DNA of 64,000 bases, from IMG/VR virus record IMGVR_UViG_3300050122_000130, positions 1 to 64,000 of that record; one strand, given 5' to 3'. This DNA is from a virus. The position numbers were made by a program, and so were the translations under genes. This document shows positions 1 to 50,085 of the stretch, one piece after another (within the stretch, counting starts at the first letter, position 1; every line of letters starts with the position of its first letter). The notes beneath the pieces are model-generated. The model was not told where the DNA came from. It saw only the letters and a list, made by a program, of their open reading frames with translations, and searched no databases.

Positions 1-109
1 TCTTCGACGGCTTTAAGGATGCTATCCTTGAAGCCGTCGAAGAGTACAAAAAATACGACTGGAGTCGTGACAAAGAGAAGGTCCAGCAGTCCCCGCAGGA
101 CACCGCGTC

Positions 110-322: not shown

Positions 323-370
323 TGATCTGATGACGCGCCCAGACGGCAAGACGCGGGACGGCTAGAAAAC

Positions 371-33441: not shown

Positions 33442-34545
33442 TTAGATGCCGATCATGCTCGCAATGGCGAACGGCTGACGCAAAACAGCGCCCATCGAGC
33501 CGCCACTCAGCTTCTGCTTCCACGATGACAGATCGGGGATCAGACGATGAGCACGCATTTTCTCGTTGAACGCGCAGAAGCCGGTCTGCTGACCGCGAAC
33601 GCTGGTGCAGATCAGCTGCATGAAGTTGCCACCGACAACGCCCTGCGGATTGCTCGAGGACTGAGCCTGGTACTGGATCGCGTCGATGATCTTCAGGTTC
33701 GGAATCTGCTTCAACAGATCCGAAACGTTGACATCGAACGAGTTCGTCGCGGTGAGCGCGAACTTGGACGCCGGAGAAAGCGCCAGCACGAATGGCGATT
33801 CCTGGTTGATGTTGCCGCCGGACTGCAGGATGAGTTGGATGACCAGCGCCTGGATGTCCAGATAGATCTCGTTCGGCGTCGCGGTGATGATGCCGTTGGT
33901 GATCCACTGGTTGTTGCCGTATGCCTTCGGTCCGGGCGTCAGCGCGGCCGTGAGGTTCGGATCGTTCAGCAGCCCGTAATTCTGCAGGCCCTTCACGCCG
34001 AAGAAGTATGTCTGGTTCTGGTAACGGTTCAGAGCCCAGGCGGCCGCGGCGTTCAGTTCGCTGACCCAGTTGATCTTCGCGAGACCAACGACATCGAGCT
34101 CGCGATCGCCGTATTGCAGGATCGTCTGATAGAGGTACGGCTGGCGCGAGGGGAAGTTCAGGTTGGTGCTGACCGAGCCGTTGTTGACGTAATCGTCGTA
34201 GCTCGAGACTTCACCGGTGTGCTCGGCAGTCGGGAACATGACCGAGTTGAGCGTCCAATCGCCCTTCTTTACTTCGCCGAGAATATCGGCGGCGCGCAGC
34301 GGGGAGAACAGGATCTCGTAGACTGTCGGGTCGATCATGGTCGACAGCCACACCGGAATGCCGGTGTTCAACGTGGTCGTGGTCGTCGGCTGCGCGTCCA
34401 TCGCGAGGCCTTGATCCATGGCGAGCTCGAAGTTGTGCTTCCAGCCGTCAGGGATGTACATGCGCGCGTTTTCAAAGATCGCGCCGCTCGACTCGTAGGT
34501 TTTGCGCTCCTGAGCGAACGCGGCGACAGCTTCGTGGCGATTCAT
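33442..34545 (-). CDS. major capsid protein (DUF2184-like)
   Basis: AMDAQP..N.GIP..IDP; EVKKGDW; YFFGV.GLQNYGLLNDP; EKMRAH. Confidence 0.92.
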   Translation of the reverse strand: MNRHEAVAAFAQERKTYESSGAIFENARMYIPDGWKHNFELAMDQGLAMDAQPTTTTTLNTGIPVWLSTMIDPTVYEILFSPLRAADILGEVKKGDWTLNSVMFPTAEHTGEVSSYDDYVNNGSVSTNLNFPSRQPYLYQTILQYGDRELDVVGLAKINWVSELNAAAAWALNRYQNQTYFFGVKGLQNYGLLNDPNLTAALTPGPKAYGNNQWITNGIITATPNEIYLDIQALVIQLILQSGGNINQESPFVLALSPASKFALTATNSFDVNVSDLLKQIPNLKIIDAIQYQAQSSSNPQGVVGGNFMQLICTSVRGQQTGFCAFNEKMRAHRLIPDLSSWKQKLSGGSMGAVLRQPFAIASMIGI

Positions 34546-34559
34546 CGTAAGTGCCTTTC

Positions 34560-34593
34560 CAAAATAAAAAAGGCGCTCACGAGGAGACGCCTT
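34560..34593 (-). terminator. terminator-like hairpin directly upstream of the capsid gene
   Basis: AAGGCG..CGCC followed by TTTTTTATTTT. Confidence 0.55.
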
Positions 34594-34620
34594 GGCTGAG
34601 GGAGATTGTGAAAGCGAAGT

Positions 34621-35607
34621 TTAGGAGATGTTGGTGACCTTGATCAGTTCACCGACAGCACCAGCAGATGCAGCACGCCACTTCGTTTCGATCGAGGCCT
34701 GCGCCGAAATCGCGGTCGAAGAAGCCGTTTGCGACGGGCTCACCACATAAGTGCCGGCACCTCCCGCCGATCCGGTGAGCTGCTGTGTGACCACGGTACC
34801 GGTCGTCACGCCGCTGCCAGTCAGGATCTGACCGGGCCCGAAACCGGAGACCACCGTGCCACCGACCGTGAGAACACCGTAAGTGCCAGTGATCGTGGTC
34901 GATGCAGCGTTCTGCTCCGGGATATTGACGTTGTAACGGCCGAGACCGTTCAGCGCTTCACCCGCGAGCAGCGGGGTGATCTGGCTGACGATCTGCGTTC
35001 CGGTGGCAACGCCGGTACCGCTCAGAATCGAGCCGGGGTAGAAGTTGCCGGTCAATACGCCGCCGGCGGTGAACACGTCGCCGATGAGCGTGCTAGCCGT
35101 CGCATTGGCGGTCGCCGGCGCAATCGAAGATGCCGATCCAGAACCGCCGCTCGGCGTCGAGCCGGCAGCAGCAAACGAGGCCGAGCCATCCGCATAGTTG
35201 GCGAATGCCTTCATGCCGACAGTGGCGGCGGCGGCACCGTTGTTGACCACCCACATGTCGACTTCGTTGTAACAAGCGATCTGGAAACCGCTCTGCAGAT
35301 ATTGCACCGCGGTGCCCAGATAGGCAGTGATCATGCCGACCTGGCGTCGGGAGACGATACCCGCGGGCAAGCCAGAACCGAACGTGTTCAGCGTGGCCGG
35401 AGCATTGTCGTTGTCGATCGTGGCGTACGACGTCCAGCCGAAGCGGCCGATGACGCAGCCAGTGACGACAACACCGCTGATAACGCCAGCACCGGAGATG
35501 AGTCCGCCTTCGCCGGCGAGGACGGTAGCGCGCGGATTCGCCGAAGCAAAATCACCGGCATTGCCGGGCGCCTGGATCGAGTTAACCTGGTTGGGAAAGT
35601 CGGGCAT
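34621..35607 (-). CDS. capsid decoration / cement protein
   Basis: F.NQVN..APG.AGDFASANPR; immediately upstream of the capsid gene. Confidence 0.85.
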   Translation of the reverse strand: MPDFPNQVNSIQAPGNAGDFASANPRATVLAGEGGLISGAGVISGVVVTGCVIGRFGWTSYATIDNDNAPATLNTFGSGLPAGIVSRRQVGMITAYLGTAVQYLQSGFQIACYNEVDMWVVNNGAAAATVGMKAFANYADGSASFAAAGSTPSGGSGSASSIAPATANATASTLIGDVFTAGGVLTGNFYPGSILSGTGVATGTQIVSQITPLLAGEALNGLGRYNVNIPEQNAASTTITGTYGVLTVGGTVVSGFGPGQILTGSGVTTGTVVTQQLTGSAGGAGTYVVSPSQTASSTAISAQASIETKWRAASAGAVGELIKVTNIS

Positions 35608-35635
35608 CGAATTTTTCTCCTGTTCGATGAAAGTT

Positions 35636-35796
35636 GCGGGGAAGGGGATCAAAAAAATCCCCCTCCCCGGAATGGGAAGAGGGCCGAAAAGGTCACAGCC
35701 TGCGGTGCGTTCTTTCCGCCTACAGAGAATCGGAGGGCCAATTCTCTTTGCTAACGACGATCAGCTAAGGCTGTTACGAGCGGAGGAAGCCGCCCG
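35636..35796 (-). ncRNA. putative structured RNA: hairpin, multi-way junction and terminator
   Basis: CGGGCGG-CTTCCT-CCGCTCG; ACAGCCT/AGGCTGT closing three hairpins; CCCTCTTCCC/GGGGAGGGG followed by T7. Confidence 0.5.
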
Positions 35797-35802
35797 GTTC
35801 GT

Positions 35803-36876
35803 TTACTGGTGGCCGATACGCTCGAGGTTCTTGGCCAGACCCGGATTGCGCTTCGCGATCTCGCCGGAGGCGGAAGTCTGCTCCGCGGAATCCATCGCGT
35901 AGGTCTGCTTTTTGCCGCCGTCCTTCGGAGGCAGAGCATCGAAGGCAAACTTGAGCATTTCGACGTTTGCCTCTTTCGGCGGCTTCTTGCCGGAAGCGAT
36001 CTCGATCGCCTTGCTGAAGACCTGCGCAGCACTGTCGAAGGCCATGCCGCTGAGATTTCCGACGCGACCACGGACGTGATCCTTGGCAACGGCGACTGCA
36101 TCCATGCGGTCGCGCTCCTTCTTGATGCCGGCGTTGATGCCGGCCTGGATCTTCTCGTCCATCGCCTTGTCCTTCTCCTCGTCGTCTTCATCGTTGGCGG
36201 TTTCTTTGGGCGTCTCCGGATCGTGCTCTTCGTCTTCCTCGTTGACGTCCTTGTCCTTGGCGCCAGCGGTGAGCTTGCCGTCCTTGCTCTTCTTGGCATC
36301 TTTAGCCTTTTTGTCAGCCGCCTTCTTGGCTTCCATGCGCTTTTTCATGCGCTCGGCCTTCTCCTCGTCGGTCTCGGCCTCTTCGTCGTCGGCCATGTCC
36401 TCATCGTCCATGTCCTCGTCTTTGGCCTTGTCTTCCTTTTTGTCCTTCATATCGTCGGGGAAATCGTCGCACGCGACCTCGATCATATCGAGCACGGCAT
36501 CGAGCCCCTTCGGATCCAGCGCGCCGTCTTGCGCATACTGCGGATCGAGGTGACCCTCGACCGAAGCGTTGATCCATGCGCCAAGAACCGGACGCTTGGC
36601 CTTGAAATTCTTCGCATTGATATTGCGAAGACCCTTGTTCAGGTCGATCTTCGCATCCATCGCAAGCTGCGGACGCAGGAATGTGGTCAGCATGCCATAC
36701 GCGACAGTGCCGAGCGCCGACAGTTTAGCTTTCTTGATCATGGTCTTCTCCTTGATGTCAGGGTTAACGGAGTCGTATGCGCGCTCAGTCAGAAGTGACT
36801 CGTCGAGACCGAGCGCCACGATGGCCTCACGAGGAGTCTTGAATTTCTTGCGAAGTGCGTCACGCAATTTGCTCAT
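35803..36876 (-). CDS. head scaffolding protein
   Basis: Highly charged; many A-x-D motifs; between protease and decoration; ATGA coupling. Confidence 0.8.
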
Positions 36877-39413
36877 AGGTGCAGCCCCAGGATTGCCGAC
36901 TCGATCAGAGCCCACGGATCGATCGCGCCGTCGCCGACCACAACATCGCTACCCGCGCGGCCCTCAGAAACGAGCGCAACGTGATTTCCGATGATGTCGC
37001 GCATAACACCGTCGTAGGGCTTGCCCTCGTAAATGCCTGGCGTCATGTCAGCGCGGTAGCGATAGGCGCTGGACAATTCCTTTTTGCGTTTACTCTCGAC
37101 CGCGTTGATGCCGCGCTCAGCCCAGATGACGAGGCTGTTTTTCAGGTGCGGATGTTCGAACGAAGCGTCGGTACCGGTCGAACCGACCACGAGCTCAGGA
37201 CGATGGTTGGCGGCGTTGACGCCGACATGCTGATCGAGCAACGGCAGATTGTTGAAGGTCGACTCCGCCTTCTTCAGCTCCGCAGGATCTCGCAACAATT
37301 GATAGATACGGCCGGGATCGAGCCCCAGCTCCTTGTACTTCGGAATTTCCTTTCCGAGATACGGGTTCACAATCGCCTTCGAGATGTTCGAAATCTCGAC
37401 GTGCATGCGGCCGTCGGCGTCGATCCTGCGCACCGTCACCGGCGCGCGATCGAACGCCAAGCCGTGGCGCTCGATCCCAGGAATGGTTGCCCGGTCGAAC
37501 GCCAGCTCCTCGCCGTCGAGCTCGACGTCATGAATCTTGTCGGCGCCGTCGCCGTCCCAGCCGAACGGCACGATCTTGTCGTCTTCGTCGCGCGCCTCGA
37601 TCGTGCGTGACGCGCCGATCGATCCCAGCCGCTTCATGTGGCTCAGCAGGCCCTTGAAATTGAAGTCGCCGCTGTAGCGGACGGTCAGCGTGTGCTCGGC
37701 ATTGTACGGTTTCCGATCCCGCGCGAGGCCCGCGAACATGCCGTCCATCGCCTTCACACCGACTCGAGTCGCGAGATTCTTCTTCCTCGCAATGAGCCGA
37801 TCGGCCAATTCCTTGTCATCGCCGACGGCTTCGCGGATCTTCGCGTCCGGGATCTTTGAGACGCGCTCGACCGACGCCGAGAGCTCAGCTTCGGTCATCG
37901 GTGCGAACAGCTTCGCGGCGTCCGGGTTCATGCCCTTGTCGCGCAGTGTGTCGAATTCCGTAACCTTGTCGCCGAACGCCGCCCCCTTGGCCCCCCCCTG
38001 AGCACGGAAGCGCAGCGAACCGCCTACATCCAGCGTGGTCGTCTTACCTTCGAGGATCCCTTGATTGTCTCCACCCGTACCAGCCGCGTCCCAATTAGAA
38101 AGCCAGGCATGGATAGCGAAGTCTTTAGCCGCTTCTTTGCGCTCAGCCGGCGTGAACTCGCTGATGTTTTTCTTTTCGAGCTTCCGCCATTCCGTCGCAA
38201 CATGCTGACCGCCTTCCACATCGCGGTAGGGCAGCGTCGCGGCGCCGGCGAGCTGGTACAGGCGCGCGGCGGCGCGCTCATTGTCCGCGTGGGCCTTAGT
38301 CGGGGCTTTCTTGATGTAAAATTTGGAACCGCTTTTATCTTCGTAGGTTCCGCCCTCGTTCGATCCCAGCTTGCCGCCCTTTTTCGACAACTCGCCCATC
38401 TTCAAGGGTGAACTTGCGCCCTTCTCCGATGACTTTGCCTTTGAGGAGTTCCCGGAATGGGCTGATGCACTCGCAGAGGAACCGCTCCCGCTCCCGAATT
38501 TCCCGTCGTCTTTGCGCGGATGATCGCCCTCGTTCCATTCGTCGCTCGCTAAGGTTCCAAGGCTGCGCATGAACAGCGCCATATCGAAGGCCTTCGTGAT
38601 GCCCAGGCCCTTGCTCACGGTCTTGAAGATGGGAGCAACCCCCGACCCGCCGCATTTATCGCACCCAGCGCCCGCGCAGGCCCCGCAAACGCTATCCTGC
38701 GCAAGACGACGCTTCGCCAGCCGCTTCAGGCGGGCGTCAATCTTCCCGCCGACCGGGGTTCCGGTGTTGACGATCGTCGCCAGCGCCGGCTGATTATCGT
38801 CAGCGTGTTCCGGTTCCGCTTCTTCCTCGCGCGTCCACTTCGCGAAGTTCTCGCGCAGCTCCGCCCAATCCTCCGGCGCCATGTCCTGCGCCATGCCGAG
38901 ATTTTCGCCAAGCACCCGGGTGACGTTCGGATGCATCGGCTCCGGCAGTTTGTCGAGCGGAAACCAGCCGAATTCCGAATGCTCCTCGTTCAGCTTCGGT
39001 TTGAACTTGTCCTCGACCGATTCAGTGAACGTGTGGAACATCATCCCGTTCGGAGTCTGCACCAGGTCGAGCAGCTTCTTCCGGCCGGTAGCGGCCGGCG
39101 CCGTCGATCCGAGCTCCTCGCGAGCTTCGCGATCGGCGCATTGCTCCGGAGATTCCCCTGCATCAGCTTTGCCGCCCGGTAGCGCCCAGTGCCCGACGTA
39201 GTTGTCCTTGCCTTCCTCGCCCGCGCGCTTGATCAGTAGCACATCGCCATCTGGTGCCACGAACACGATGCCGGCCGCGATCGGCAGCGCTGCGTCTTCT
39301 CCGGCTTCCTTGTATGCGATAGCAGCAGCCTGCTTTACAGGTCTTCCCAGCTTAGTGAGTTCAGCTATATTAGCCGATATCACTTTCTGGGATGATCCCT
39401 GCTTCAGTGGCAT
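36873..39413 (-). CDS. prohead protease (DUF2213-like) polyprotein with NUDIX, Zn-finger, kinase-like and WDGDG domains
   Basis: Nudix box [23 protein letters not shown]; GSNEGG..FYIK..NE..NWD..DN..DVGG; C-terminal LLDQH..ELSSAY..NHVALV..GRAG. Confidence 0.88.
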
Positions 39414-40131
39414 TTTTGTTTTTCCATCTATTTGGCGGTCGCGTGCCAAGGCGCTTATGCGCTGCGCTCATCTTGGCTTTAGTTTCATCGGAATGCTTGC
39501 GGCCAATGCTTAGCTGTCTCAGCATTTCCATATGTTCGGGAGACGAACGAAGACCGCTAGTGTTTCTTGTCGCACTCATTTTTTGGCGAGTTTCCAACGA
39601 AACCTTGCGACCTGTTTGAGTCTGCGATCTTTTCAGATTGCTCTCTGGAGTAATAATTTGATTAGCTCTTGCAACTCGGATTTTATCGCGAGTTTTTTCA
39701 GAAAGAGGTATCCCGGCTCGACTACTCAATACCAAACGGCCTGCATCCGTCATGATGTGCGGTTTCGACATTTTTTTGAGCGTTTCCGCTGAATGTCGTC
39801 TGCCTGCGCGTTTAGCTGCGACCTCTGGTGAAGACATCGGGCTGGTCTCTCCGCCCAATCCGACATTGTAGCCTTGTGATCGGTCAGTCGTCCGAAAGAA
39901 CCTAATGAACTCTATTTCTAGGCTCAGTATTTCGTGCTTCTCACCAAGCGCCAGAACTTGAGGAACCAAGTTGTTAGTCCCGTAGCGCATGATAGCCTGA
40001 TGAACGGGTAGATTAGATCCTCGTCTCGCATCACTGCAATGCCTCATCCAACGATGTCTTATCGTTTTTGAGGTAATGCCAAAATATCGCTTTCCATTCG
40101 GAAATTCGATCACATAGAGTAGGTAAGCCAT
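39370..40131 (-). CDS. GIY-YIG homing endonuclease with NUMOD3 repeats
   Basis: LLY..YFGIT..RW..H..AI..YG..E..GYN..GG; repeated GR.HS.ET..KMS. Confidence 0.9.
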
Positions 40132-40199
40132 CTGGGCGCTCCAACGCTCATTTCGGTTAGAGGCCGTTCAGTGTGTCGAGCACTGTACGGCCTCGTCTT

Positions 40200-40228
40200 C
40201 TTATACTAGCTCCTACTGACTATCGCAA
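40200..40228 (-). promoter_or_regulatory. sigma70-like promoter of the GIY-YIG gene
   Basis: TTGCGA-N17-TATAAG, followed by a leader hairpin. Confidence 0.65.
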
Positions 40229-40258
40229 CGCTCTCTGCACTGCCAAAACTTGAAGTGC

Positions 40259-40384
40259 CTATGCCTTGAAGCAGTCCTCACAGCGGTCCGAACTGATGAC
40301 CCTGGGACTGACGCTGACATACTTCTCGACGGATGGCTTCTGGCCGCAGTCCGTGCAGACAGGTTCAGCCGGTTTCTTTTTCAC
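40259..40384 (-). CDS. 41-aa zinc-ribbon peptide (not in the ORF track)
   Basis: GTGA overlap; CTDC...CEDC. Confidence 0.5.
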   Translation of the reverse strand: MKKKPAEPVCTDCGQKPSVEKYVSVSPRVISSDRCEDCFKA

Positions 40385-40662
40385 TTCGGTTTCTTTCGCC
40401 CGCGCGTATCGAGCGCGGTTCGATTATTGTTGCGGCCCTTGTTCACTGCCGGCGGACGCAGACCGAGCCGGCGCTGATAGGCGCGGACGTGCGTGGCGCT
40501 GAAACCGCAGACACCGATCTCGGCCGCGAGTATTTCCGGATCCAGACCCTGCGGCGCGTCCCTCAAAATCTTTTCGATCTCTGGGGAGTCGTACGGGTCG
40601 CGAAACTTCATTGTCGAACTGGTGCTGATCCACCAATCATCTGAATTCCCGAAGTTCTCCAT
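40381..40662 (-). CDS. hypothetical protein, possible HTH
   Basis: TGATG coupling; basic C-terminus. Confidence 0.55.
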   Translation of the reverse strand: MENFGNSDDWWISTSSTMKFRDPYDSPEIEKILRDAPQGLDPEILAAEIGVCGFSATHVRAYQRRLGLRPPAVNKGRNNNRTALDTRGRKKPK

Positions 40663-41093
40663 CAGCCAAGACGATAGGTCAGCGTCACAGCTTCTTCGGT
40701 ACGCCCCTGCTTCTTGGCGATCGCACGCATGGCGCTGTTGCGCACATGCGTTCCTGACTGAATCGTTACTGCTTTGAGTTCAGCGGCCTTCTCGACCATT
40801 GCCGCCCACAAAGCGTTGTAGAGCCCGCGGCCGCGGAATTCCGGGAGCGTATAGCTCTGGAAGATCCACACGCGCCCGGTATCCTTGTCAAAATTCCAGG
40901 TCATCACCGCGGCGGGTATCATTTCGCGGCCGTTCTGCGCGTAGGCGATAAAGGCGTTAAGCGACGTAAAGACGTTCAGCGTCCCGTCACCGTACCCCTT
41001 CTCGACACATTCCGCCCAGCCGCGCACCGCGAGCTCGAGCGCTGGCGTATTGTTCAGGCCCTCGACGTACACGATCTTGATCTCGTCGCTCAC
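40662..41093 (-). CDS. GNAT acetyltransferase
   Basis: YTLPEFRGRGLY acetyl-CoA motif; N.AM...KQG. Confidence 0.85.
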   Translation of the reverse strand: MSDEIKIVYVEGLNNTPALELAVRGWAECVEKGYGDGTLNVFTSLNAFIAYAQNGREMIPAAVMTWNFDKDTGRVWIFQSYTLPEFRGRGLYNALWAAMVEKAAELKAVTIQSGTHVRNSAMRAIAKKQGRTEEAVTLTYRLG

Positions 41094-41187
41094 TCGTCAA
41101 ACTCCGATCATCTGAACGAGCGGCCACCGAATCCAGATCATCCGCCGCGTACGCCAAAAAACCAGACGTGAAGATCGTACTGCATTT

Positions 41188-41352
41188 TCAAATTCGGCCC
41201 ACGAGCAGCAAGATGATCAAGATCACGACGATCAGACCGAGACCGCCGCCGACTCGATAACCACCGCCATAGAACGGACCGCCGCCCATGCCGCTGAAGC
41301 CGCCGAGCAGCGCGATAACGAGAATAATCAGAATGATGGTGCCGATCGACAT
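41188..41352 (-). CDS. small membrane protein (DUF3309-like)
   Basis: MSIGTIILIILVIALLGG..GGLGLIVVILIILLLVGRI; AAGGAGG RBS. Confidence 0.85.
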   Translation of the reverse strand: MSIGTIILIILVIALLGGFSGMGGGPFYGGGYRVGGGLGLIVVILIILLLVGRI

Positions 41353-41366
41353 GGTGGCCTCCTTCG

Positions 41367-41840
41367 TTATTGCCGCGCACCGATCGCGATATACTCGCCG
41401 GGCCCGGCATTCTTGTTGTCGCGATCGAGCGTCACGCGAAGATCGGTCGATCCGTTCAGCATCAGGACCAGGTCCGACGACGAACTGATGATGCCAGGGG
41501 GTACCATCGGCGAATTCTGCACGGTGGTCTTCCAGTGTGCACTCTCGAAGGCGTTCTCCAGGTTCAGCGCCAGATCGCCGCATTTGCTGTCCTCGAGACA
41601 GAAAATGGTCACTTCGCCCGGCTTGTCCTTCAATTTCGTGGTCAGGTCGTCAATTTCAGCCTGACTGAGCTCCGGCCAGATGGTTCTCGCCATCCGTTGG
41701 GCCTTTGCCGGGCTTACGGTGCCCGCTGGTGCGGTGACGACGCGGGTGACTACTGGCGCGCGGGTCACGCTCAAATAACCCACAGAGGCCGCCACAGCGA
41801 CTAACGAGGCCACGATCGAGGGGATGACATGCTCTCTCAT
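41367..41840 (-). CDS. membrane-anchored hypothetical protein
   Basis: N-terminal TM segment; CLEDSKC pair. Confidence 0.65.
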   Translation of the reverse strand: MREHVIPSIVASLVAVAASVGYLSVTRAPVVTRVVTAPAGTVSPAKAQRMARTIWPELSQAEIDDLTTKLKDKPGEVTIFCLEDSKCGDLALNLENAFESAHWKTTVQNSPMVPPGIISSSSDLVLMLNGSTDLRVTLDRDNKNAGPGEYIAIGARQ

Positions 41841-42055
41841 GGTATCCCCGCTGGTCGATCGATTGCAGGAGGCGGTTCAGCCGCCGGAGCCGGCGCGTAG
41901 ACCGGCGCCGGGCCCTTGTCGCGCTTCATCACGACCGAGACTTTCGGCTTGTGCGGGATCGGCAGATCAGCGCCATAAGCGACCGAGAAAATCAGCGCAC
42001 CCACCGACACCACTAAAGCGAACACAGATAGTGCCAGCGATATTCGATACAGCAT
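41837..42055 (-). CDS. small exported/TM protein (ADLP motif, Pro-rich)
   Basis: Hydrophobic N-terminus, then AYG-ADLPIP. Confidence 0.55.
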   Translation of the reverse strand: MLYRISLALSVFALVVSVGALIFSVAYGADLPIPHKPKVSVVMKRDKGPAPVYAPAPAAEPPPAIDRPAGIP

Positions 42056-42060
42056 CGTGC

Positions 42061-42414
42061 TCAATCCTGCGTTTCTTTGGCGAAGTCGCCGTGTTTGTCG
42101 ACCGGCGCCGGCAGCAGCGGCATCTGTACGATATCGGAACGCTTGTGCCAACTGTCCGGGCAGAACTGAATTTTGCCGTCGGTGATGATGTAATGGCAAA
42201 GGATATTTTGCTTTTCACCACGGCCGAGATTGGTTTGCGGGTCGATCCCACCAGTCCAGCGAACGAAGGTCTGCGCAAAGCTTGGCGAGAACGTTGGCTT
42301 CTGCACGTCGCCATTGAAGGTCCAACTATCGGGCAGGATGTGAACTTCCTCGCATGCCGGACACCAGTGAGCGTGACCGGTAATTGTTTTGCGGAGTATC
42401 GGGCTGACCTGCAT
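42061..42414 (-). CDS. DUF6527-like metal-binding protein
   Basis: HWCPAC..H..WTFNGD..PTFSPS..CHY.ITDG.IQFC.D..H. Confidence 0.8.
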   Translation of the reverse strand: MQVSPILRKTITGHAHWCPACEEVHILPDSWTFNGDVQKPTFSPSFAQTFVRWTGGIDPQTNLGRGEKQNILCHYIITDGKIQFCPDSWHKRSDIVQMPLLPAPVDKHGDFAKETQD

Positions 42415-42514
42415 CAGGAATATCTCTGAGCGACGATCATCACAATCACCATGAAGATCACCATCATCGCCACGATTCCAGCGGCCTGCCATATCTCTTT
42501 ACGTCCAGAACGCC

Positions 42515-42871
42515 TCACAGCCGCGCGCTCGTCATATACTTGTCGTCAGGGACATCTGGCATCTCAACCGTCTGTCCGCGCAGCGAATGCGTGCAGTCAC
42601 CGAGAAACTCTATCATCCCATTGCGAATGAAGTAGTGGCAGACCGTGCTCGCGACACCGCGCTGATATTCCTTCATGTCCGGTGTGTTCACCCGCATATT
42701 GATGCTCGGCGAGAACGTCGGCTTGTACCGGTTGTTGTTGAACGTCCACTTCGCACCAGATGAGTTTGGCTCGTCAACGTTAATCTCGTGGCCATAGCCA
42801 CAGCCTGGACACCAGTGACCGTAGCCACCCTGCGGCCAATACTTGCGATCGAGCGCTACCAGCTTGCTCAC
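42515..42871 (-). CDS. DUF6527-like metal-binding protein
   Basis: HWCPGC..H..WTFN..PTFSPS..CHYFIRNG.IEFL.DCTH. Confidence 0.8.
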   Translation of the reverse strand: MSKLVALDRKYWPQGGYGHWCPGCGYGHEINVDEPNSSGAKWTFNNNRYKPTFSPSINMRVNTPDMKEYQRGVASTVCHYFIRNGMIEFLGDCTHSLRGQTVEMPDVPDDKYMTSARL

Positions 42872-43341
42872 GGCGTCAGCTTTCCATCGCGCAAAAATCC
42901 ATGCCACTCATTGTTCGAACCCATGAAGAACGAGCCGGCGCCCGCGGCGCACGTCTTGCCGTTCTTGTCGACGGTGATTTTCTCGCCAACAGTGCCGTGC
43001 CGTACCCAGCACCGGTGCTCGTGGTCTTCCTTCATCGTGCAGTTCGACGCGCGGCCCTCGATCGCCCACGAATGACCGTCGGCGTGCTTGCAGTAGATCG
43101 ACAGGCCGTCATAGCCCACGCGCGGATATGAATTAGGCCCAGCGCCGTTTGTGCGGCGTGCGGACCAAAGCGCGCCCGTCGGCATCTCGTTCCAGCGAAC
43201 CTCGCGACCGGTAGTCGTCTCACGCATGATCGGCGAGCTCACGCCATCCTTGTCGAAGCCGCTCATCTTCGGCTTGCCCTCAGCATCGAGGACGTGTTCC
43301 CACCAGGTCGTCTCGAAGACAGCGTGCGGATCGATCGTCAT
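42868..43341 (-). CDS. divergent DUF6527-like Cys/His protein
   Basis: NC..H.CW.RHG..TC..S..WHGFLRDG. Confidence 0.65.
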   Translation of the reverse strand: MTIDPHAVFETTWWEHVLDAEGKPKMSGFDKDGVSSPIMRETTTGREVRWNEMPTGALWSARRTNGAGPNSYPRVGYDGLSIYCKHADGHSWAIEGRASNCTMKEDHEHRCWVRHGTVGEKITVDKNGKTCAAGAGSFFMGSNNEWHGFLRDGKLTP

Positions 43342-43367
43342 GACAAGCAATCTCCGCAATCCGACAA

Positions 43368-43399
43368 GCAAAAGGCCCCGACTGTAAAGTCGAGGCCTT
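43368..43399 (-). terminator. rho-independent terminator
   Basis: AAGGCCTCGAC-TTTACA-GTCGGGGCC followed by TTTT. Confidence 0.7.
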
Positions 43400-43514
43400 G
43401 GCCGTTATTTATTGCAAGTCCGTGTCGCCACGAGCCCGGGCGACCGCGCGAAGCTTACCTCAACATCTCCGACAAATGCTAAGGGGCGCCGGCTCGGCCG
43501 GCGGCAGTATTGGG

Positions 43515-43763
43515 CTATCGCTGGAGAAAGTAGCCGTGGCCACCTCCGAAACCGCCAAGCAGGCACGAGATGATCTCAGCTAGCAGATAGATAATTCGGA
43601 TCGATATCGACAGCATGATGATTATCAGCAAAACCTGCGTGATCCACGGAATTCCGGACATGCTCTCGAGCCAAGGTCCGATCAGCCGGCAAATCTTCAA
43701 TGCCGCGATGATACACATAAACCAAACGATTAACTCGACAACGAACCAGATTGAAAAGCACAT
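43515..43763 (-). CDS. small 2-TM membrane protein
   Basis: GGAGG RBS; two hydrophobic helices. Confidence 0.7.
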   Translation of the reverse strand: MCFSIWFVVELIVWFMCIIAALKICRLIGPWLESMSGIPWITQVLLIIIMLSISIRIIYLLAEIISCLLGGFGGGHGYFLQR

Positions 43764-44032
43764 CGCTCAGCCTCCAAGGGTTAAGCCGACGCAACGCGCG
43801 AGAGTTTAGTTCGTTCCTCTCACACCCAACCCAGAACCCAAAAAATGAAAGCCCAAAGCGGAAGCGCGATCGCTACCGCCAGCACCCAAGGCCAGGATGC
43901 GGAATAGATTATTTTCAAGACAGGTGATCCATTTTGACCATGCTTCCACTTCAAAGCCTGACTTAAACTTTCCCCATGAGACAGCATCCTCGCCCAATTT
44001 GGGTCGACAGCGGTTTGTTTCCGCCGATTGAT

Positions 44033-44866
44033 CTACGAGAAGCCCGGCACGATCGGGATGCTCACACATCGGCAGTTAATCAACTGGCCTGGATGGATGA
44101 ACTCTTTGACCGCAGGGTCATACCATCCTTTGGTGACGTCGTAGGTTTTGCCGTTGTTCTTGACATGCGTCGGGCGCGGGACCTTCCCCCCGCCTGAATG
44201 TCGCCATGTCGCGGTAGTGATGCCGTTCTCAATGAACCGCACGCGCGACATGTTCGCCGTCGCTTTATTGTTCTGATCTTTCGATATCAGCGCCGCACGC
44301 CGCTTCGTCACGCCGTACCGCTTCTCAAGTTGTTTCGAAAGTGTTCCAAGGTCCCGGCCAGCCGATACCGACCGCATCACGAGTCCTTCGACTTCCTGCA
44401 GGTGCTGGCTGGCGATCGATTTGATCAACCCAACATTCTCCGCGGTCGTCGCCTCGACCACGTCCTTCATGGCTTGCGACATCTGAAACCGAACAGAGAA
44501 GCCGCCTTTTCGCAAGATCGAAGCGAGCTGCTGGTCCGTCCGCTTGTGCGCGGCCGTCGCGAAGTATTTCGCCAGTTGCGGTGCCGCCCAATCGAATCTC
44601 TTCAGCCAGCGCTTCTTCAGCAACTCGATCGCTTTCTTGAGCGCGTTTGCCGGCAGGATATCGTCCATCGCCATCGCTGGCGGGTTCTCGCGGTACGCAG
44701 CCTTGATCCAGTAATCGACGGATGCGTTCATTTCCTTGATGAGCCGGTCCAGCTTCTTGCGGTAGGCGACGCTGAGGCCGATGTTCGGATGCACCGGCCG
44801 CAGCTTCTTCGGCTTCGAGGCCTTGGATGCTTGGCCAACTGAAGTCGCGCGAAATATTCCGTGCAT
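44033..44866 (-). CDS. MuF / SPP1 gp7-like head morphogenesis protein
   Basis: ENVGLIKSI..RAALI.KDQNNK..W.HS..R..H..PGQLINCRC. Confidence 0.92.
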   Translation of the reverse strand: MHGIFRATSVGQASKASKPKKLRPVHPNIGLSVAYRKKLDRLIKEMNASVDYWIKAAYRENPPAMAMDDILPANALKKAIELLKKRWLKRFDWAAPQLAKYFATAAHKRTDQQLASILRKGGFSVRFQMSQAMKDVVEATTAENVGLIKSIASQHLQEVEGLVMRSVSAGRDLGTLSKQLEKRYGVTKRRAALISKDQNNKATANMSRVRFIENGITTATWRHSGGGKVPRPTHVKNNGKTYDVTKGWYDPAVKEFIHPGQLINCRCVSIPIVPGFS

Positions 44867-45146
44867 CGAACTTTCCAACGTAGGCCCGAACGAACGACAT
44901 ATCGTCGGGCACGATCGATTGCATTTTTAGCAGCTGGTCGACCATGGATTTGACGTCGGAGTAAATCTCCTCCGGCGTGGCCATGGCCCAGAACTTACCG
45001 CTGCCGTAGAGCGTCACAGCGGTCTTGCTGGGACCGATGGCCATATCCATCCCGTAGACGACATCAACCGGCGCCTTCGGCAGGGCCGGCGCGATCGCCG
45101 CGGCCGCAACGCCCGTCAGAAACGCTCTGCGGTTAAGTTCGGGCAT
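44325..45146 (-). CDS. twin-arginine-leader protein; only the 5' ~95 codons are likely real, the rest overlaps MuF
   Basis: MPELNRRAFLTGVAAAAIA; GGAGG RBS. Confidence 0.45.
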   Translation of the reverse strand: MPELNRRAFLTGVAAAAIAPALPKAPVDVVYGMDMAIGPSKTAVTLYGSGKFWAMATPEEIYSDVKSMVDQLLKMQSIVPDDMSFVRAYVGKFDARNISRDFSWPSIQGLEAEEAAAGASEHRPQRRLPQEAGPAHQGNERIRRLLDQGCVPREPASDGDGRYPAGKRAQESDRVAEEALAEEIRLGGTATGEILRDGRAQADGPAARFDLAKRRLLCSVSDVASHEGRGRGDDRGECWVDQIDRQPAPAGSRRTRDAVGIGWPGPWNTFETT

Positions 45147-45435
45147 CGAGCGCGCGCCTCCCGATCGGCGGGTCACCCATCAATTGCGACGTGACATTCT
45201 CGTGCTCGAGATAACCGTCTCTGCTAGGATCGTATTGCGCGGCAGCGCGGTAATCCGGCTTGTCGACAGCGTACTCTTTCAGCCGATTGTCGACTGAACC
45301 TGCCATGCGCTTGCGGTAACCGCGCATATATTCCTTCATGTATCGATTGTACGATTCTCGATCGGCCCATTTCGACGGCGTGGCACCTTTCGGTCTACCG
45401 CGTGGACGTCCAGTTGGATTGCTCCAATAGCTCAT
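45133..45435 (-). CDS. AT-hook-containing small DNA-binding protein
   Basis: TGRPRGRPK; YN.YMKEYMR.YRKR. Confidence 0.6.
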   Translation of the reverse strand: MSYWSNPTGRPRGRPKGATPSKWADRESYNRYMKEYMRGYRKRMAGSVDNRLKEYAVDKPDYRAAAQYDPSRDGYLEHENVTSQLMGDPPIGRRALDART

Positions 45436-45701
45436 CAGTGCACGCGCCCGCGGCGCTGATGCTCCCACCAGATGAAGCGGTGATAGCCCCACCAAAACGG
45501 ATTGGCGAATGAGTGGCGGACCACGAGCGCACGATTGTCGAGCGGTATGGTGTGTTTGTCATCAACGCAGCCCATACGGCTGTTGCACGATGGATAGATG
45601 CAGTCGTCCCACGGACAGGCGGTCATCATGCAGCCCCATAAGGCCGCACCAGCGGCCGAGCGACGCGCGTGTTGCGCTGCTCAGCCCGATCTAGCGCAGA
45701 A

Positions 45702-45977
45702 TCACTCTTTGCGAAAGGAGGTTCCCGACGTATCGCCGGAGCCCTCCCCGTTTTTTGAGTTCGAACGCTCCAGATCCTTCACTTCCTCGAGCATCGCGTC
45801 GAAGTCGGCCTCGCCGCTATCGAGCGAACCTTCGTGCGCCTCGAAGGCCTGGTTCATCCGAGAGTCGAAGCCCGGCATACGGTCGATCAGCGCCTGCGCG
45901 CGCTCGTCCATCTTCCGCTTGCGCTCGGCCACCATCTGCGCTGCGAGACGCGCCTTGCTGATCGGTGCGTCCGCCAT
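45702..45977 (-). CDS. hypothetical coiled protein
   Basis: GAGG RBS; coherent ORF. Confidence 0.6.
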   Translation of the reverse strand: MADAPISKARLAAQMVAERKRKMDERAQALIDRMPGFDSRMNQAFEAHEGSLDSGEADFDAMLEEVKDLERSNSKNGEGSGDTSGTSFRKE

Positions 45978-45978
45978 A

Positions 45979-46413
45979 TCAGCCTCGTCCCGCTTCGCCG
46001 CTCGATCGATTGTCCGACTCAGATGTAGGTTCAGCAACTGCGACAGCAGCAGCGTTCGCTGCATCGGGCGCGTCCCTCTTGAAGCCGGCCTCTGCGAAGA
46101 TCCTCATCATGGCCTCGGCGCCGAGCGGGTCGCCGATCTTGACCGCTCCGCGAATCAGCGCCGATGACGAATACATGCCGGCGACCACGCCCATGATCTG
46201 CTCCGCGCAATAGTTGCGGTGCTTCTGCTTGTCCTGGACGACGTCGATGCCGGGAAACAAATCGATCACGGTATTGAGCTGGTCGCGCGCGCGCGCCGCG
46301 AGGAAGCGCCCATACCGCAGGCTCACGTCCATCAGCCACGTCTGGTCATCACCGGTGGTGATTTCCTTTTTGATCTCGTCCAGGCGCCGCTGGTAGGCTT
46401 CATGGTTGAACAT
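45979..46413 (-). CDS. hypothetical protein
   Basis: TGATG coupling to the upstream small ORF. Confidence 0.7.
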   Translation of the reverse strand: MFNHEAYQRRLDEIKKEITTGDDQTWLMDVSLRYGRFLAARARDQLNTVIDLFPGIDVVQDKQKHRNYCAEQIMGVVAGMYSSSALIRGAVKIGDPLGAEAMMRIFAEAGFKRDAPDAANAAAVAVAEPTSESDNRSSGEAGRG

Positions 46414-46577
46414 CAGTCGTCGTCTTCCATCTCGACTTCGTTGCCATTGTCGTCGACCACCTTCACCTTGAACGGTGGGTCGTCTTTCTGCACTACAACG
46501 ACTTCGCCGTCCGGTCCAGCACCGATCGGACCCTGCTCGAGCGTCGAGGTATCAATCTTCTTCGGCTCTTTGGACAT
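46413..46577 (-). CDS. 54-aa acidic protein directly after the portal-ART gene (not in the ORF track)
   Basis: MSKEPKKIDTSTLEQGPIG...EVEMEDDD; GAGGA RBS; coupled on both sides. Confidence 0.65.
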   Translation of the reverse strand: MSKEPKKIDTSTLEQGPIGAGPDGEVVVVQKDDPPFKVKVVDDNGNEVEMEDDD

Positions 46578-46578
46578 T

Positions 46579-49500
46579 TCAGACTTCCTCGAGCTCGATG
46601 TGAGTGCCCTTGACGGACTTCACATGAAAGCGGCTGCCCGACTTGAACAGCACCTCAGCCTCACCTGGATGAGACGATAGCTTCTCGATGTCGCGTCCGT
46701 TCTTGCCGTGCACCGTGTAGCTATAATCGCCGGACCACGTTCCCTGGTTCTTGCTAGTTGAGGTGAAGCCACGTTCTTCGATGATGTGCCCGGGAATATA
46801 GGCCTTGAACTGCTCCGGCGTCAGCGACGCTTTGCGGTACGTGGTTTGCGTATACTTCGGCAGCTTCTCAAGCCCGGAATTCAGCGACTTCATGAACTTG
46901 TATTGCGCGACAGTCATCGTGCCACGGCGCAACTCGGAATTCACCTTGCCGTAATGCGAACCACTGTACGCGATGATCGGAACAGCGTCCGCGCCACTGA
47001 TGTGCTTGGACAAGCCTGCCGATTTGACCTTCTTTTCCGCTTGCGCGACGTAGGCCTTGGCAGCATCACCGCCACCAAACAGCGCTTCCATCGCTTCGTA
47101 GTGCGTCTTCAGCTCAGGATCGGCCGCAAACTTCTCGTCGAGCTCCTTCTGCGCTTTAGCCTCTTTTTCGGCCTTCTCGGCAGCGGCTTTCTTCGCGTTC
47201 TCTTCGACCTTCTTCGCCGCGGCCTCAGCCGCAGCTGATTCAGTCTGCTTGACCTTGGCGAGCGTGGCTTTGTAGTCGGCGACCTTCTGGTTCAGCTGCG
47301 CGTCGCTCAGGCCTTCCTTGCCGGCGTACTTCGCATTGAACTCCTTGATCGCAGTGACAGCTTCCGGCTCGGAGCTCGAGATCGGTAGCGTCGTTCCTTT
47401 CTTGGCTTTCTTCAGCTCCTCCGGCGTGGCCTGCGGAACAGTGGGCTTGTCCTGCAACAGGCCCATCTTCTTCATCTGATCCTTCATCGCAGGCTTCATG
47501 TTTTCCGAGAGCTGCTCGGCAAAAGCCGGATTGTACTTGAGCAGGTTTGCAGCGGTATCGGTGTCGTTCTTCTGCAGCGCCTCAGCCACCGCGCCCAGGA
47601 ATTTCGGATAGGTGCCGCCTTCACCCGACATGAACTCAGCCAGCGCGTTCAGCTTCGCTGGCTCAGGCGTCTTTTCTGTAACCGCTGGACCTTCCCACGA
47701 TTTAGCAATTGCAGCTTTTTTCTCCGGAGTCAGAGCAGCAGCTTCCTTCGCTGCCTTCTTCTCGGCATCCGTCATCGGATGGCCCTTATACATCAGCTTG
47801 CCGTTTTCGGTGTACTTCTCCAGCTTCATGCCGAGCGACTTGGCTTGCGCCGGCATCGAAACTGAGGGCCAGCCCATGGTCTCCATGATCTCTTTTGCGG
47901 TTGTGCCCTTCTCGAGGAGATGGCCGATGATCTCCTTTTTCGAGTTGAACTTCGCACCAACGAAGCCCTTGGCTACATCTGCAAGAGCCTTAGCCGCGCT
48001 TGACTTGCCGCTCGCCGGCGTACCGCCGCCCCCTGTGGTCGAGAACTTGCCGTCCTGATCGCGCTTGACCTTGCTCTCGTCGAACTGGCCATCGTCGAAC
48101 GCCCAGACATCGGCCGCGATCTCGGAGGGCTCGATCGCTTCGTCAGCAGCGCCGTCGACTTCCTTGTTGTCGCGCGATCCACTACCGCCTTCGCCGCCAC
48201 CGCCGGCTCCGCCGCCCTGAACCATGCCCTGGTCGGCTGGCGGCTCCGGTAGATCGTCTGGCTCGAGTCCATTGTACGGCGAGTCATCGTCAGCGATGAC
48301 GATCTCACGAACTTCTTCTTGGCCGATAACGCCCATGTCGACGTAAATCTGATGGGTCTCGGCCTCGGTCTTCTTGACCTCAGATTCGCCCTTCTCGTCC
48401 AGGCTCCAGAGCGGTTCGAACTCGAAGCCGATCGAGGGATCGACTTCACCGAACAGATTGAGCTGAATAAAATCAATAATGCGCTTCAGCTTGTCGCGGA
48501 ACAGGTTCTCCTGCATCGCGTGCACAAGATCGTAGAACACCCGAAGCTCCCCCTCGCTCGAGGCGTTCAGGCCCGAAGGCGTGATGCCGAGCAGCACGAT
48601 GAGCGGGATACCCGACACCGATGACATCTGCTCCTGGCTTTGCGCCTGCAGGTGGTCGAGCGTCCCGAGGGGGGTTGAGATGTTGAAGAACTCTTCGGTC
48701 TCCTTGTCCAGCACCATGGCGCCGGCATTGCTGCGCGCCTTGTTGAACAGATCGATGCGGTCAAGCACCTCCTCGCCGCCGCCCTGCAGCAGCGATTGAG
48801 CGTTCGTGTAGACGCCCGAAACAGAGAAGCTTTCGATCAGGTTGGTCACGGCCTGTCGGGTGCGCAGCCAGTTGTCGACATATGGCTTGGCCATCTGCGA
48901 CATCGACAGGCCGCCGAATGCATACGACGGCTTGAGAATGTCCGGCACCGGCCGGCCGACGAACGTCAACAGGCGCGAGACGTGCACCTGCTTCGCCATC
49001 GCGAACCAGACTTGCGGATTGTACCAATCATCCGCCAGCGGGTCATTCGCGTTGTAATTGACGGGGTAGCACCAGATCGGCTCGATATGTTTGATGTTCT
49101 TCAGCGAGCCCTTTTTGAATTGAGCCTTGCTGGTCTCATCGCTTCCATTGCCTAGGTCGCTCTTGAGCTCGTCCGGATCGTCACTGTCGCCGGTGTCAAT
49201 GTAGAGGTGGCTCCGCCCCATCCAGCCATCGAACTCTGCGACGGTCTTGAACTTGCCCCGCAGGTCGAGGCGCTTCATGTCCTCCTCGATCGCCTTCAGC
49301 TTCTTCTGCAAAGCCTCGTTGCGTTTGCGTTGTGCGATCTCCTCCGGAGTGGGCTCGTCGTCTTCCTCGTCGTCATCGGCCACGGCGCCGCCGGCAGGGG
49401 CACCATCCGCATCATCGTCCTCTTCGTCCTCGAGCGGCGCATCGGGCGCTTTGTCGGCGCCAAGGCCTTCATCCGCCTCGTCGGCGTCCTCGTCGCTGGC

Positions 49501-50085
49501 ATCGCTCTCAGGTTCGGCTTCACCGGCAATCGTGAGCCGGATCCACTTCCTGGTCATCTCGGTCGCAAGGCGTTCCGAGATCCGGCGATACTCCGGCCGC
49601 TGGGTCAGCTGCGACAGATACGCGTACCCAAGAAAGCCGATGCCCTCCGAGAAGGCCTCGCCGATCGGGTTCGCGAAATTCCACGCGTTTGTGTACGACT
49701 CGTTGGCCCAGGTCGCGATCGCGCCGTCCAGCGCCATTTCCGGCTCGGCGCCCTGGGGTAGAACGCCCGGAGGTGGCTTGAATGCCTGGAACGGGTTGTA
49801 GAGCGCCGCTCCTTGGCTCTGCGAGGCCCCTGAACGCGTTTTACGTGCGGCCCGCGCCATAACTTCGGAACTTATCTTCATCGGCGCACGGGGCTCGACA
49901 ACGGCCGCATGGTGCTTCTCAAGATCGACAGCTGTGCGCGGTGGCACTTTGTCCGCCGCGGGCGCCGGCTTGGCTGTGGGAGCCGGCGTCGCCGCGACAG
50001 CAGGGGTGTGTCGCATCACACCGAGAACGGCCTCCTTGATGGTTTCTGAAGTCGGCCGCTGCCGCTTATACCGGGTCACCGTCAC
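46579..50085 (-). CDS. portal protein (DUF1073-like) fused to a wHTH-like domain and a C-terminal ADP-ribosyltransferase
   Basis: Portal motifs F.GY.YL.QL.QRPEYR..EMTRKWI and LLGITPSGLNASSEGE; ART R-S-E triad YRK / FTSTS / GEAEVLF. Confidence 0.9.
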   Translation of the reverse strand: MTVTRYKRQRPTSETIKEAVLGVMRHTPAVAATPAPTAKPAPAADKVPPRTAVDLEKHHAAVVEPRAPMKISSEVMARAARKTRSGASQSQGAALYNPFQAFKPPPGVLPQGAEPEMALDGAIATWANESYTNAWNFANPIGEAFSEGIGFLGYAYLSQLTQRPEYRRISERLATEMTRKWIRLTIAGEAEPESDASDEDADEADEGLGADKAPDAPLEDEEDDDADGAPAGGAVADDDEEDDEPTPEEIAQRKRNEALQKKLKAIEEDMKRLDLRGKFKTVAEFDGWMGRSHLYIDTGDSDDPDELKSDLGNGSDETSKAQFKKGSLKNIKHIEPIWCYPVNYNANDPLADDWYNPQVWFAMAKQVHVSRLLTFVGRPVPDILKPSYAFGGLSMSQMAKPYVDNWLRTRQAVTNLIESFSVSGVYTNAQSLLQGGGEEVLDRIDLFNKARSNAGAMVLDKETEEFFNISTPLGTLDHLQAQSQEQMSSVSGIPLIVLLGITPSGLNASSEGELRVFYDLVHAMQENLFRDKLKRIIDFIQLNLFGEVDPSIGFEFEPLWSLDEKGESEVKKTEAETHQIYVDMGVIGQEEVREIVIADDDSPYNGLEPDDLPEPPADQGMVQGGGAGGGGEGGSGSRDNKEVDGAADEAIEPSEIAADVWAFDDGQFDESKVKRDQDGKFSTTGGGGTPASGKSSAAKALADVAKGFVGAKFNSKKEIIGHLLEKGTTAKEIMETMGWPSVSMPAQAKSLGMKLEKYTENGKLMYKGHPMTDAEKKAAKEAAALTPEKKAAIAKSWEGPAVTEKTPEPAKLNALAEFMSGEGGTYPKFLGAVAEALQKNDTDTAANLLKYNPAFAEQLSENMKPAMKDQMKKMGLLQDKPTVPQATPEELKKAKKGTTLPISSSEPEAVTAIKEFNAKYAGKEGLSDAQLNQKVADYKATLAKVKQTESAAAEAAAKKVEENAKKAAAEKAEKEAKAQKELDEKFAADPELKTHYEAMEALFGGGDAAKAYVAQAEKKVKSAGLSKHISGADAVPIIAYSGSHYGKVNSELRRGTMTVAQYKFMKSLNSGLEKLPKYTQTTYRKASLTPEQFKAYIPGHIIEERGFTSTSKNQGTWSGDYSYTVHGKNGRDIEKLSSHPGEAEVLFKSGSRFHVKSVKGTHIELEEV

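Follow-up and report, generated by a model that had tools for sequence, protein, structure and literature searches.

Probable maturation cutting at A-x-D motifs and a shared leader tag on the enzyme cargo of portal and protease polyproteins in an uncultured tailed phage

The first 64,000 nucleotides (the window) of the IMG/VR virus record IMGVR_UViG_3300050122_000130, a 95,488-bp record, about 90% complete, of an uncultured tailed phage, contain a head-morphogenesis cluster in which translation and Pfam/PHROG matches placed, in minus-strand order, the genes for the terminase, portal, MuF, protease, scaffold, decoration protein and capsid (Table 1). The portal and protease genes were found to encode polyproteins with enzyme cargo, as a preliminary description of the sequence had proposed; Pfam matches and homologues of the kinase-like module corroborated this. 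Our reading, to which we give a probability of about 0.6, is that a DUF2213-type protease would cut the head proteins at A-x-D motifs (Ala, any residue, Asp) and so free the enzyme cargo in the head, and that a 15-residue tag would mark this cargo for the virion. We infer the cutting in this phage from its sequence, and homology to an experimentally mapped site supports it well; the release of the cargo is plausible.

All the A-x-D motifs quoted in the preliminary description, as well as both tags, were present at their places in the minus-strand translation, and the enrichment that it had expected in head proteins was borne out. We compared the five head-internal proteins (portal, MuF, protease polyprotein, scaffold and capsid; 3,044 aa) with the 38 other proteins of the window (11,914 aa), and the expected counts were taken from composition-preserving shuffles (3,000 for the head-internal set). 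The head-internal proteins had 47 A.D motifs against 25.4 expected, 18 A[MFQL]D motifs against 4.07, and 14 against 1.09 when a hydrophobic residue was required before A[MFQL]D; not one of the 3,000 shuffles matched the observed count for any of the three forms. The corresponding figures for the 38 other proteins were 40 against 55.3, 9 against 9.65 and 4 against 2.86. The scaffold alone contained seven A[MFQL]D motifs where 0.96 were expected. In the 38 other proteins A.D was under-represented, 994 of 1,000 shuffles giving at least the observed 40; avoidance of the protease site could be the reason for this scarcity.

The link between the motif and a known cut comes from the capsid protein. 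The PB1-like Pseudomonas phages have homologues of the portal, MuF, DUF2213 protein, decoration protein and capsid genes, in the same order. The capsid protein of PB1 has one A.D in 382 residues (GSAMD64/SNFTAP, the slash marking the cut), aligned with the second LAMD of the window's protein (LAMD50), and protein sequencing (Edman) placed the N-terminus of the virion capsid protein of KPP12 directly after the aligned A-M-D (PMC3474789). The first ordered residue of the E217 capsid protein is 66 (PMC10329688), the XM1 capsid protein is found without about 30 N-terminal residues (PMC10457771), and residues 1-93 of the Pa193 portal are missing both from the map and from liquid chromatography-mass spectrometry (PMC11456595), the PB1-type portal having VAMD76. 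None of these four papers states an A-x-D rule. The capsid column held A.D in 118 of 125 aligned homologues and G-M-D in the remainder, and in 21 related virus contigs, whose capsid proteins are about 45% identical, LAMD/A stood in the same column with different flanks. For the capsid protein of the window we predict a propeptide of 50 residues and a mature N-terminus AQPTTTT, from position 34395 downwards. Loss of a capsid propeptide at a conserved site, as in maturation of the T4 gp21 or HK97 gp4 type, is thus indicated here by homology only.

The same motif recurs in the scaffold and in the portal-vertex proteins, and the protease gene lies beside the scaffold and capsid genes. The scaffold carries LAMD, YAQD, KAMD, MAFD, FAFD and YAMD, and 8-10 [hydrophobic]-A-[QMFL]-D sites were counted in each protease-scaffold fusion of relatives; MuF homologues keep their site as well. 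The cut known from KPP12, the conservation of the sites and their place in linkers make it very probable that this head lineage is cut at A-x-D during maturation. Read from the GTG at 36915, the longest open reading frame (ORF) of the scaffold shares 43 bases (36873-36915) with the end of the protease ORF; the true scaffold start is probably the Met 13 codons downstream of that GTG.

The portal ORF is arranged as an N-terminal propeptide, the core, an acidic/Gly linker, a predicted cut site, the tag, a helical region and an ADP-ribosyltransferase (ART). About 30 residues before the core, where the window's protein has MALD, [LMIV]-A-[MLFQ]-D was present in every one of the 33 portals aligned, cargo-bearing or not, VAMD76 of PB1 included. 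At the junction corresponding to the second site, WAFD, homologous portal-cargo fusions had FAFD or FAMD. The tag that follows, DGQFDESKVKRDQDGKF, is a VKR variant of HPR (relatives show HPR, HKR or IKR), and a Gly-rich linker comes after it. The ART matched PF03496 with 37.8 bits (cut-off 23.4) and PF01129 with 25.3 bits, and the motifs YR, STS and EAE occurred in this order in its translation, as in the R-S-E enzymes of the Alt, VIP2 and C3-like kind.

The protease polyprotein begins with a helical head, followed by a Nudix domain, helices with a Cys-rich stretch, a predicted cut site with the tag, a CtkA-like kinase, a small beta domain, DUF2213 and a C-terminal helix. The kinase-like domain had no Pfam family match; it was modelled confidently and superposed on Helicobacter pylori CtkA (3akj_A) with Z 13.4 and a root mean square deviation of 3.4 over 195 aligned residues. 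The four sites of the linker after the Nudix domain were kept in 9 of 11 (MAQD), 5 of 6 (HADD), 9 of 10 (LAQD) and 6 of 11 (KAFD) aligned homologues, and all four lay in segments that AlphaFold2 modelled with a predicted local distance difference test score (pLDDT) below 50. At the position of LASD, before the kinase cargo, relatives had LASE, LAAD, GAAD, LGAD or ATD. The second LAFD (37449-37460) abuts the protease domain, and LAFD followed by R was kept in 17 of 21 homologues; in alignment A4 the site HGLAFD/RA was present in all 13 relatives (LALD in one). GAID is also present, after the protease domain. In total, 9-10 of the 13 A.D sites of the polyprotein fell in residues with pLDDT below 50, which make up 23% of the protein and correspond to its interdomain linkers (binomial estimate about 5e-4, before correction for the Ala/Asp richness of linkers). 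The helical head before the Nudix domain (the first 40 residues or so; 39320-39449, minus strand) matched the 52-residue PHROG 2423, whose function is unassigned there, with E=2e-13, and may be a different kind of leader.

DUF2213 is, by prediction, the only candidate prohead protease of the genome. It matched its model with 160.4 bits (cut-off 22) over profile positions 1-166 of 167, and the S78, S78_2, ClpP and S49 models found no match in the 95-kb record, controls responding. An invariant His, Ser and His occur in this order in alignment A4 and might be catalytic. Modelled alone by AlphaFold2 with 14 close relatives, DUF2213 reached a pLDDT of 34, too poor for fold comparison; a fold search with the whole polyprotein against solved structures was filled by Nudix matches, which masked the DUF2213 fold, and a viral structure library returned only proteins named 'prohead serine protease' or DUF2213. 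In the literature on DUF2213 we found nothing on cleavage.

The tag reads [FW]-x-E-x-x-H-P-R-x-x-D-G-K-F and is followed by a Gly/Ser linker. That the two cargo leaders of this phage are related was confirmed: they are homologous and belong to a general module. The kinase-like module had homologues in 78 proteins, in which it was combined with portal, DUF2213, MuF, ART, Nudix or Zeta domains, so that recombination of modules among carriers is seen in related elements. In relatives, 53 junctions shared [FW]-x-E-[SG]-[DK]-H-P-R-x-x-D-G-K-F plus Gly/Ser, with E, R and DGKF invariant. A degenerate DNA pattern for HPRxxDGKF found at least 116 loci in IMG/VR, with up to six tags per protein among the matches listed, and at least 55 canonical tags in a genome collection, from many bacterial phyla and two archaeal metagenome-assembled genomes. 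Profile A2, built from 100 tag sequences, gave matches at E<=0.001 in 3,528 cluster representatives, of which 305 also passed 1e-10; a single protein contained as many as 18 matching stretches.

Pfam identified carriers in 78 tag-bearing ORFs as Phage_portal_3 (15), lambda-type portal (7), Mu portal (2), DUF2213 (5) and MuF (1), and the other domains in these ORFs were Nudix, TopoIB, ART, Zeta, InPase, PBECR1, 2H, GNAT, SNF2, LPD3 and LPD13, that is, the repertoire of polyvalent proteins. The earlier statement that portal and protease, not MuF, act as carriers stands for this phage; it holds for this phage only, because relatives put the same cargo on MuF. One protein had three tags ahead of an S78_2 (XkdF-type) protease, in the orientation seen in the window, and a second protease family therefore acts as a carrier. 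Many stand-alone ORFs start with Met-x(0-4)-[FW]xExxHPR, several of them with a Shine-Dalgarno sequence at the proper distance; because these begin with the tag after Met, we regard it as natively an N-terminal leader. At L161 and L221, two loci on Actinobacteria genome contigs, 3-4 tandem small ORFs per locus each start with MSTFTE(S/D)(A/L)HPRxGDGKF, which suggests families of stand-alone proteins headed by the tag.

The cut site is lineage-specific and the tag is not. A motif [AG]-x-D was found within nine residues upstream of 51 of 53 tags in relatives, where it stood 1-3 residues before the tag aromatic, against 41 of 222 tags in the global representatives and a background of 9-11%. Other residues were repeated before each tag elsewhere: ERVACGE/W three times, [VI]LK/W three times and A-E/W four times (proteins P0112, P0094, P0085 and P0083); these repeats may be cut sites of other protease families. 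A lineage-specific cut combined with a shared tag therefore fits a universal leader preceded by the protease site of each phage, and argues against the tag being a mere part of the recognition sequence of one protease.

In the AlphaFold2 model the tag was mostly of low confidence or disordered, with two segments of pLDDT below 50 flanking an HPRKDD stretch at 50 or more, as expected for a short linear motif. Pfam and NCBIfam at lax thresholds gave no model for the tag or linker regions, and the tag profile matched no solved structure, save for a chance partial match to cyclin-Y (E=1). A 36-residue stretch with the tag, too short a query for tblastn, gave one marginal match each in the phage and plasmid collections (E about 1-2), and complex prediction between the portal core (residues 121-640) and the same 36 residues scored 0.00, uninformative either way. 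Two ideas were rejected: that MuF is an obligate receptor of the tag, as no more than 10 of the 16 near-complete tag-bearing virus records have PF04233, and that the tag is an EF-hand or AT-hook, whose key positions it misfits by a motif reading from general knowledge.

Together, these results are consistent with the following course of events. The A-x-D sites of the portal, MuF, protease polyprotein, scaffold and capsid would be cut by the phage's own DUF2213-type prohead protease; the cutting would remove the 50-residue capsid propeptide, trim the N-termini of portal and MuF, dismantle the scaffold, and separate the ART from the portal C-terminus and the Nudix and CtkA-like kinase modules from the protease N-terminus. 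The carriers would bring the enzymes into the procapsid, and the freed enzymes would leave the head by ejection together with the DNA. Two of these modules would start with the tag 1-3 residues after the cut, so that cutting before the aromatic would recreate the native N-terminal state of the tag on each polyprotein module. The tag itself would be a portable N-terminal short linear motif marking virion cargo, to which each lineage adds its own protease site upstream. As to its role, our leading though tentative reading is a leader for packaging, retention or exit. A little more tentatively still, it might serve universally, in phage capsids of many lineages, as a portable N-terminal leader for the delivery of proteins that accompany mobile DNA, and be recognised at a conserved step of packaging, exit or entry.

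Several observations weigh against cutting at A-x-D with release of a tagged cargo. Considered alone, the portal was not enriched (two A[MFQL]D motifs, 1.58 expected), and what counts for its two sites is where they lie and that they are conserved, not how many there are. Ala and Asp abound in linkers, which inflates the A.D counts there. The Nudix module lacks the tag, and 6 of the 16 near-complete tag-bearing virus records are without MuF. DUF2213 is a protease by prediction, and the sole cut to have been mapped is that of a capsid protein sharing about 25% identity with the one in the window. Finally, gp24 of Pa193, a DUF2213 protein with scaffold, is still detected in virions (PMC11456595), and digestion therefore need not be complete.

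The richness of linkers and scaffolds in Ala and Asp, the lack of enrichment in the portal as a whole and the persistence of Pa193 gp24 would also be expected if A-x-D were a compositional or structural trait of Ala/Asp-rich helices and linkers, mostly left uncut, and if whole polyproteins acted as tethered enzymes. The virion RNA polymerase of N4, which we take to be an example of a polyprotein that stays whole in the virion, would be the counterpart. Iyer et al. mention some polyvalent proteins whose transfer takes place without cutting (PMC5512222). Shuffles that preserve composition nevertheless leave 18 motifs against 4.1, the exact positions are conserved amid variable flanks, the Edman-mapped KPP12 cut coincides with the aligned site, and a 12-fold portal ring with crown appendages of 500 residues would be expected to crowd the DNA channel; of all the readings weighed here, mostly uncut polyproteins seem to us the least probable. 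Only slightly better is the chance that the tag determines processing, as an exosite or recognition element steering the protease to the adjacent cut, and has no later role. It would explain why the tags of relatives always lie 1-3 residues after the cut site, why other lineages show conserved residues of their own abutting the aromatic, and why multi-tag proteins resemble beads to be separated. However, many stand-alone proteins start with the tag after Met and have nothing to remove, the capsid, scaffold, MuF and portal N-terminal sites are conserved without a tag (the capsid cut being known), and the tag is found with at least two unrelated protease families.

A further possibility, unlikely in our view but with more in its favour than these two, is that the tag acts after entry rather than in the capsid, as a short motif that docks the injected enzyme either to the DNA complex coming in or to some conserved part of the recipient cell; the cuts would then serve only to free the modules. 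The conservation of the tag across different portal, protease and capsid families and across many bacterial phyla fits a partner shared among hosts better, and cargo that is carried covalently needs no packaging signal. Against this, nearly all the contexts examined were head-gene neighbourhoods or virus contigs, and the partner is only postulated. Simple binding to DNA, which the preliminary description had offered as one role of the tag, is unlikely on composition, because the invariant residues are equally acidic and basic (E and D balance R and K, plus H); the other role that it offered, an ejection signal, is possible. Marking of virion cargo, with cutting at A-x-D to expose the mark, remains the reading that we prefer.

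The idea of carriers is not new, since effector fusions to MuF and portal were described by Iyer, Burroughs, Anand, de Souza and Aravind in 2017 (PMC5512222), and fusions of a 'capsid-processing serine peptidase' to Nudix, ART and other effectors are described in the accessible part of Iyer et al. 2022 (PMC9503650). As far as the accessible text of these papers goes, their polyvalent proteins agree with those found here in that ART, Nudix, kinase, Zeta, TopoIB, PBECR, 2H, InPase and LPD domains ride on MuF, portal or peptidase, that the genes lie among head genes, and that packaging and injection are predicted. In the window, too, anchor and effector share one ORF, the portal domain PF06381 with the ART and DUF2213 with NUDIX, the kinase-like domain lying between the latter two. 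The difference lies in processing, which the accessible text assigns mainly to zincin-like metallopeptidase domains, whereas the window has none of these and has its own maturation site and tag at the module borders. The string 'HPR' is absent from the text of the 2017 paper (PMC5512222), supplements apart, and neither that text nor the 2022 paper, the latter searched for carrier terms only, yielded a passage on a common leader or on prohead-protease sites at module borders. Searching the literature, subscription journals apart, we came upon neither the tag nor the A-x-D rule, and 'DGKF' with 'phage' led to unrelated papers only. The tag is real and very widespread, and it is apparently undescribed.

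In T4, gp21 trims the capsid, scaffold and portal-vertex proteins and the packaged enzymes, and an ART accompanies the DNA on delivery; the internal proteins IPI-III and Alt are marked by a short N-terminal peptide, the capsid targeting sequence (CTS). The likeness to T4 drawn in the preliminary description proved apt for the mechanism: both have one head protease, a short consensus, a packaged ART and a short N-terminal cargo peptide. The residue before the cut (the P1 residue) and the position of the tag differ. The T4 consensus ends in Glu (L/I-x-E) and that of the window in Asp after Ala-x; the T4 cargo is free-standing, whereas that of the window rides on portal and protease; and the CTS lies upstream of the cut and is removed, whereas the tag, being downstream of it, would be retained by the cargo. 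The two have no sequence similarity, and the tag falls outside the T4-type CTS, as it stands downstream of A-x-D with no further A-x-D before the folded cargo, though it may work like one. The PB1-like phages (PB1, KPP12, E217 and Pa193) share with the window homologous head genes, their order, a capsid cut after A-M-D and a missing portal N-terminus. They differ in that the PB1 protease is fused to the scaffold, and no Nudix/kinase or ART cargo and no tag occur in those PB1 genes; the papers on PB1-like phages call the DUF2213 protein a scaffold. In the accessible parts of the literature on giant phages, the proteases phiKZ gp175 and SPN3US gp245 likewise have one short motif that delimits many pieces of head and ejection proteins, but they belong to the T4 gp21-like family and cut at S/A/G-x-E, with Glu as the P1 residue where the window has Asp, and no leader shared by the products is reported there.

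Along with their DNA, phages inject proteins that serve to disarm the host. To our knowledge, which proteins are injected and how they are loaded is rarely known outside T4, P1, N4 and the giant phages. Cutting after [hydrophobic]-A-x-D would supply a definite rule for a large lineage, to which the therapeutic PB1-like Pseudomonas phages belong, as do phages of Acinetobacter, Burkholderia, Xanthomonas and Klebsiella; the rule predicts the mature ends of their capsid, portal, MuF and scaffold proteins. Should the tag be a delivery signal, packaged effectors could be predicted from sequence, among them ARTs, Nudix hydrolases, kinases, topoisomerases and nucleases. Were it a universal leader, the injected effector repertoire of uncultured phages could be read from the tag alone, and the tag could be used for loading foreign proteins into capsids.

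Table 1. Genes, domains, predicted cut sites and tags of the head module (positions in the window; residues of the respective polyprotein)
Feature	Residues	Positions	Strand	Basis or remark
Large terminase		50082-52181	-	
Portal polyprotein, 1168 aa ORF		46579-50085	-	Pfam and PHROG portal families
MALD, predicted portal N-terminal processing site	117-120	49726-49737	-	
Portal core, PF06381 Phage_portal_3	155-579		-	Pfam E=5e-75
WAFD, predicted portal/cargo cut site	661-664	48094-48105	-	
ART cargo leader tag DGQFDESKVKRDQDGKF		48043-48093	-	Profile A2, 46.4 bits, E=4e-13
R-S-E ADP-ribosyltransferase cargo	1024-1159	46609-47016	-	PF03496 ADPrib_exo_Tox E=1.6e-9; PF01129 E=1.1e-5
MuF head-morphogenesis protein, no cargo		44033-44878	-	PF04233 E=3.5e-11
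MuF MAMD		44663-44674	-	Aligns with IAQD in relatives, FAKD in PB1
Protease polyprotein, 858 aa ORF, probable start Met13		36873-39449	-	DUF2213 and NUDIX
Nudix domain	56-175		-	Pfam NUDIX E=1.4e-21
Linker with MAQD (38883-38894), HADD, LAQD (38694-38705), KAFD (38583-38594)		38583-38894	-	
LASD, predicted cut site before kinase cargo	300-303	38541-38552	-	pLDDT<50 segment
Kinase cargo leader tag		38496-38540	-	Profile A2, 55 bits, E=8e-16; Gly/Ser linker to about 38418
Kinase-like domain	345-567	37749-38417	-	AlphaFold2 model, structure comparison
Linker with KAMD (37743-37754), LARD (37716-37727), LAFD (37494-37505, 37449-37460)		37449-37754	-	
DUF2213 (PF09979) domain	674-840	36930-37430	-	E=5e-47; PHROG 'head maturation protease'
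Scaffolding protein		35803-36915	-	Matches scaffold half of PHROG 2229
Scaffold, six hydrophobic/K-A-x-D sites		36655-36666, 36526-36537, 36157-36168, 36034-36045, 35938-35949, 35890-35901	-	
XM1-gp53-like decoration protein		34621-35652	-	
Major capsid protein		33442-34545	-	PHROG 264 E=7e-60
Capsid LAMD, twice		34414-34425, 34396-34407	-	

The head genes are accompanied by other elements, all on the minus strand. The large terminase holds an intein of about 264 residues (50214-51005) with a LAGLIDADG_3 match (E=2.9e-4), which begins with Cys393 and ends with His-Asn656, Ser following. Two free-standing GIY-YIG homing-endonuclease genes lie between head genes, one at 39370-40131, with NUMOD3 and GIY-YIG Pfam matches, and one at 31589-32173, judged from its N-terminal GIY...YIG sequence only. 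The interval between the MuF and protease genes contains a GNAT-like ORF (40662-41093) and, at 42061-42907, two adjacent paralogous small Cys/His-rich proteins of 143 and 130 aa, both of which carry HWCP.C...H...FSPS motifs.

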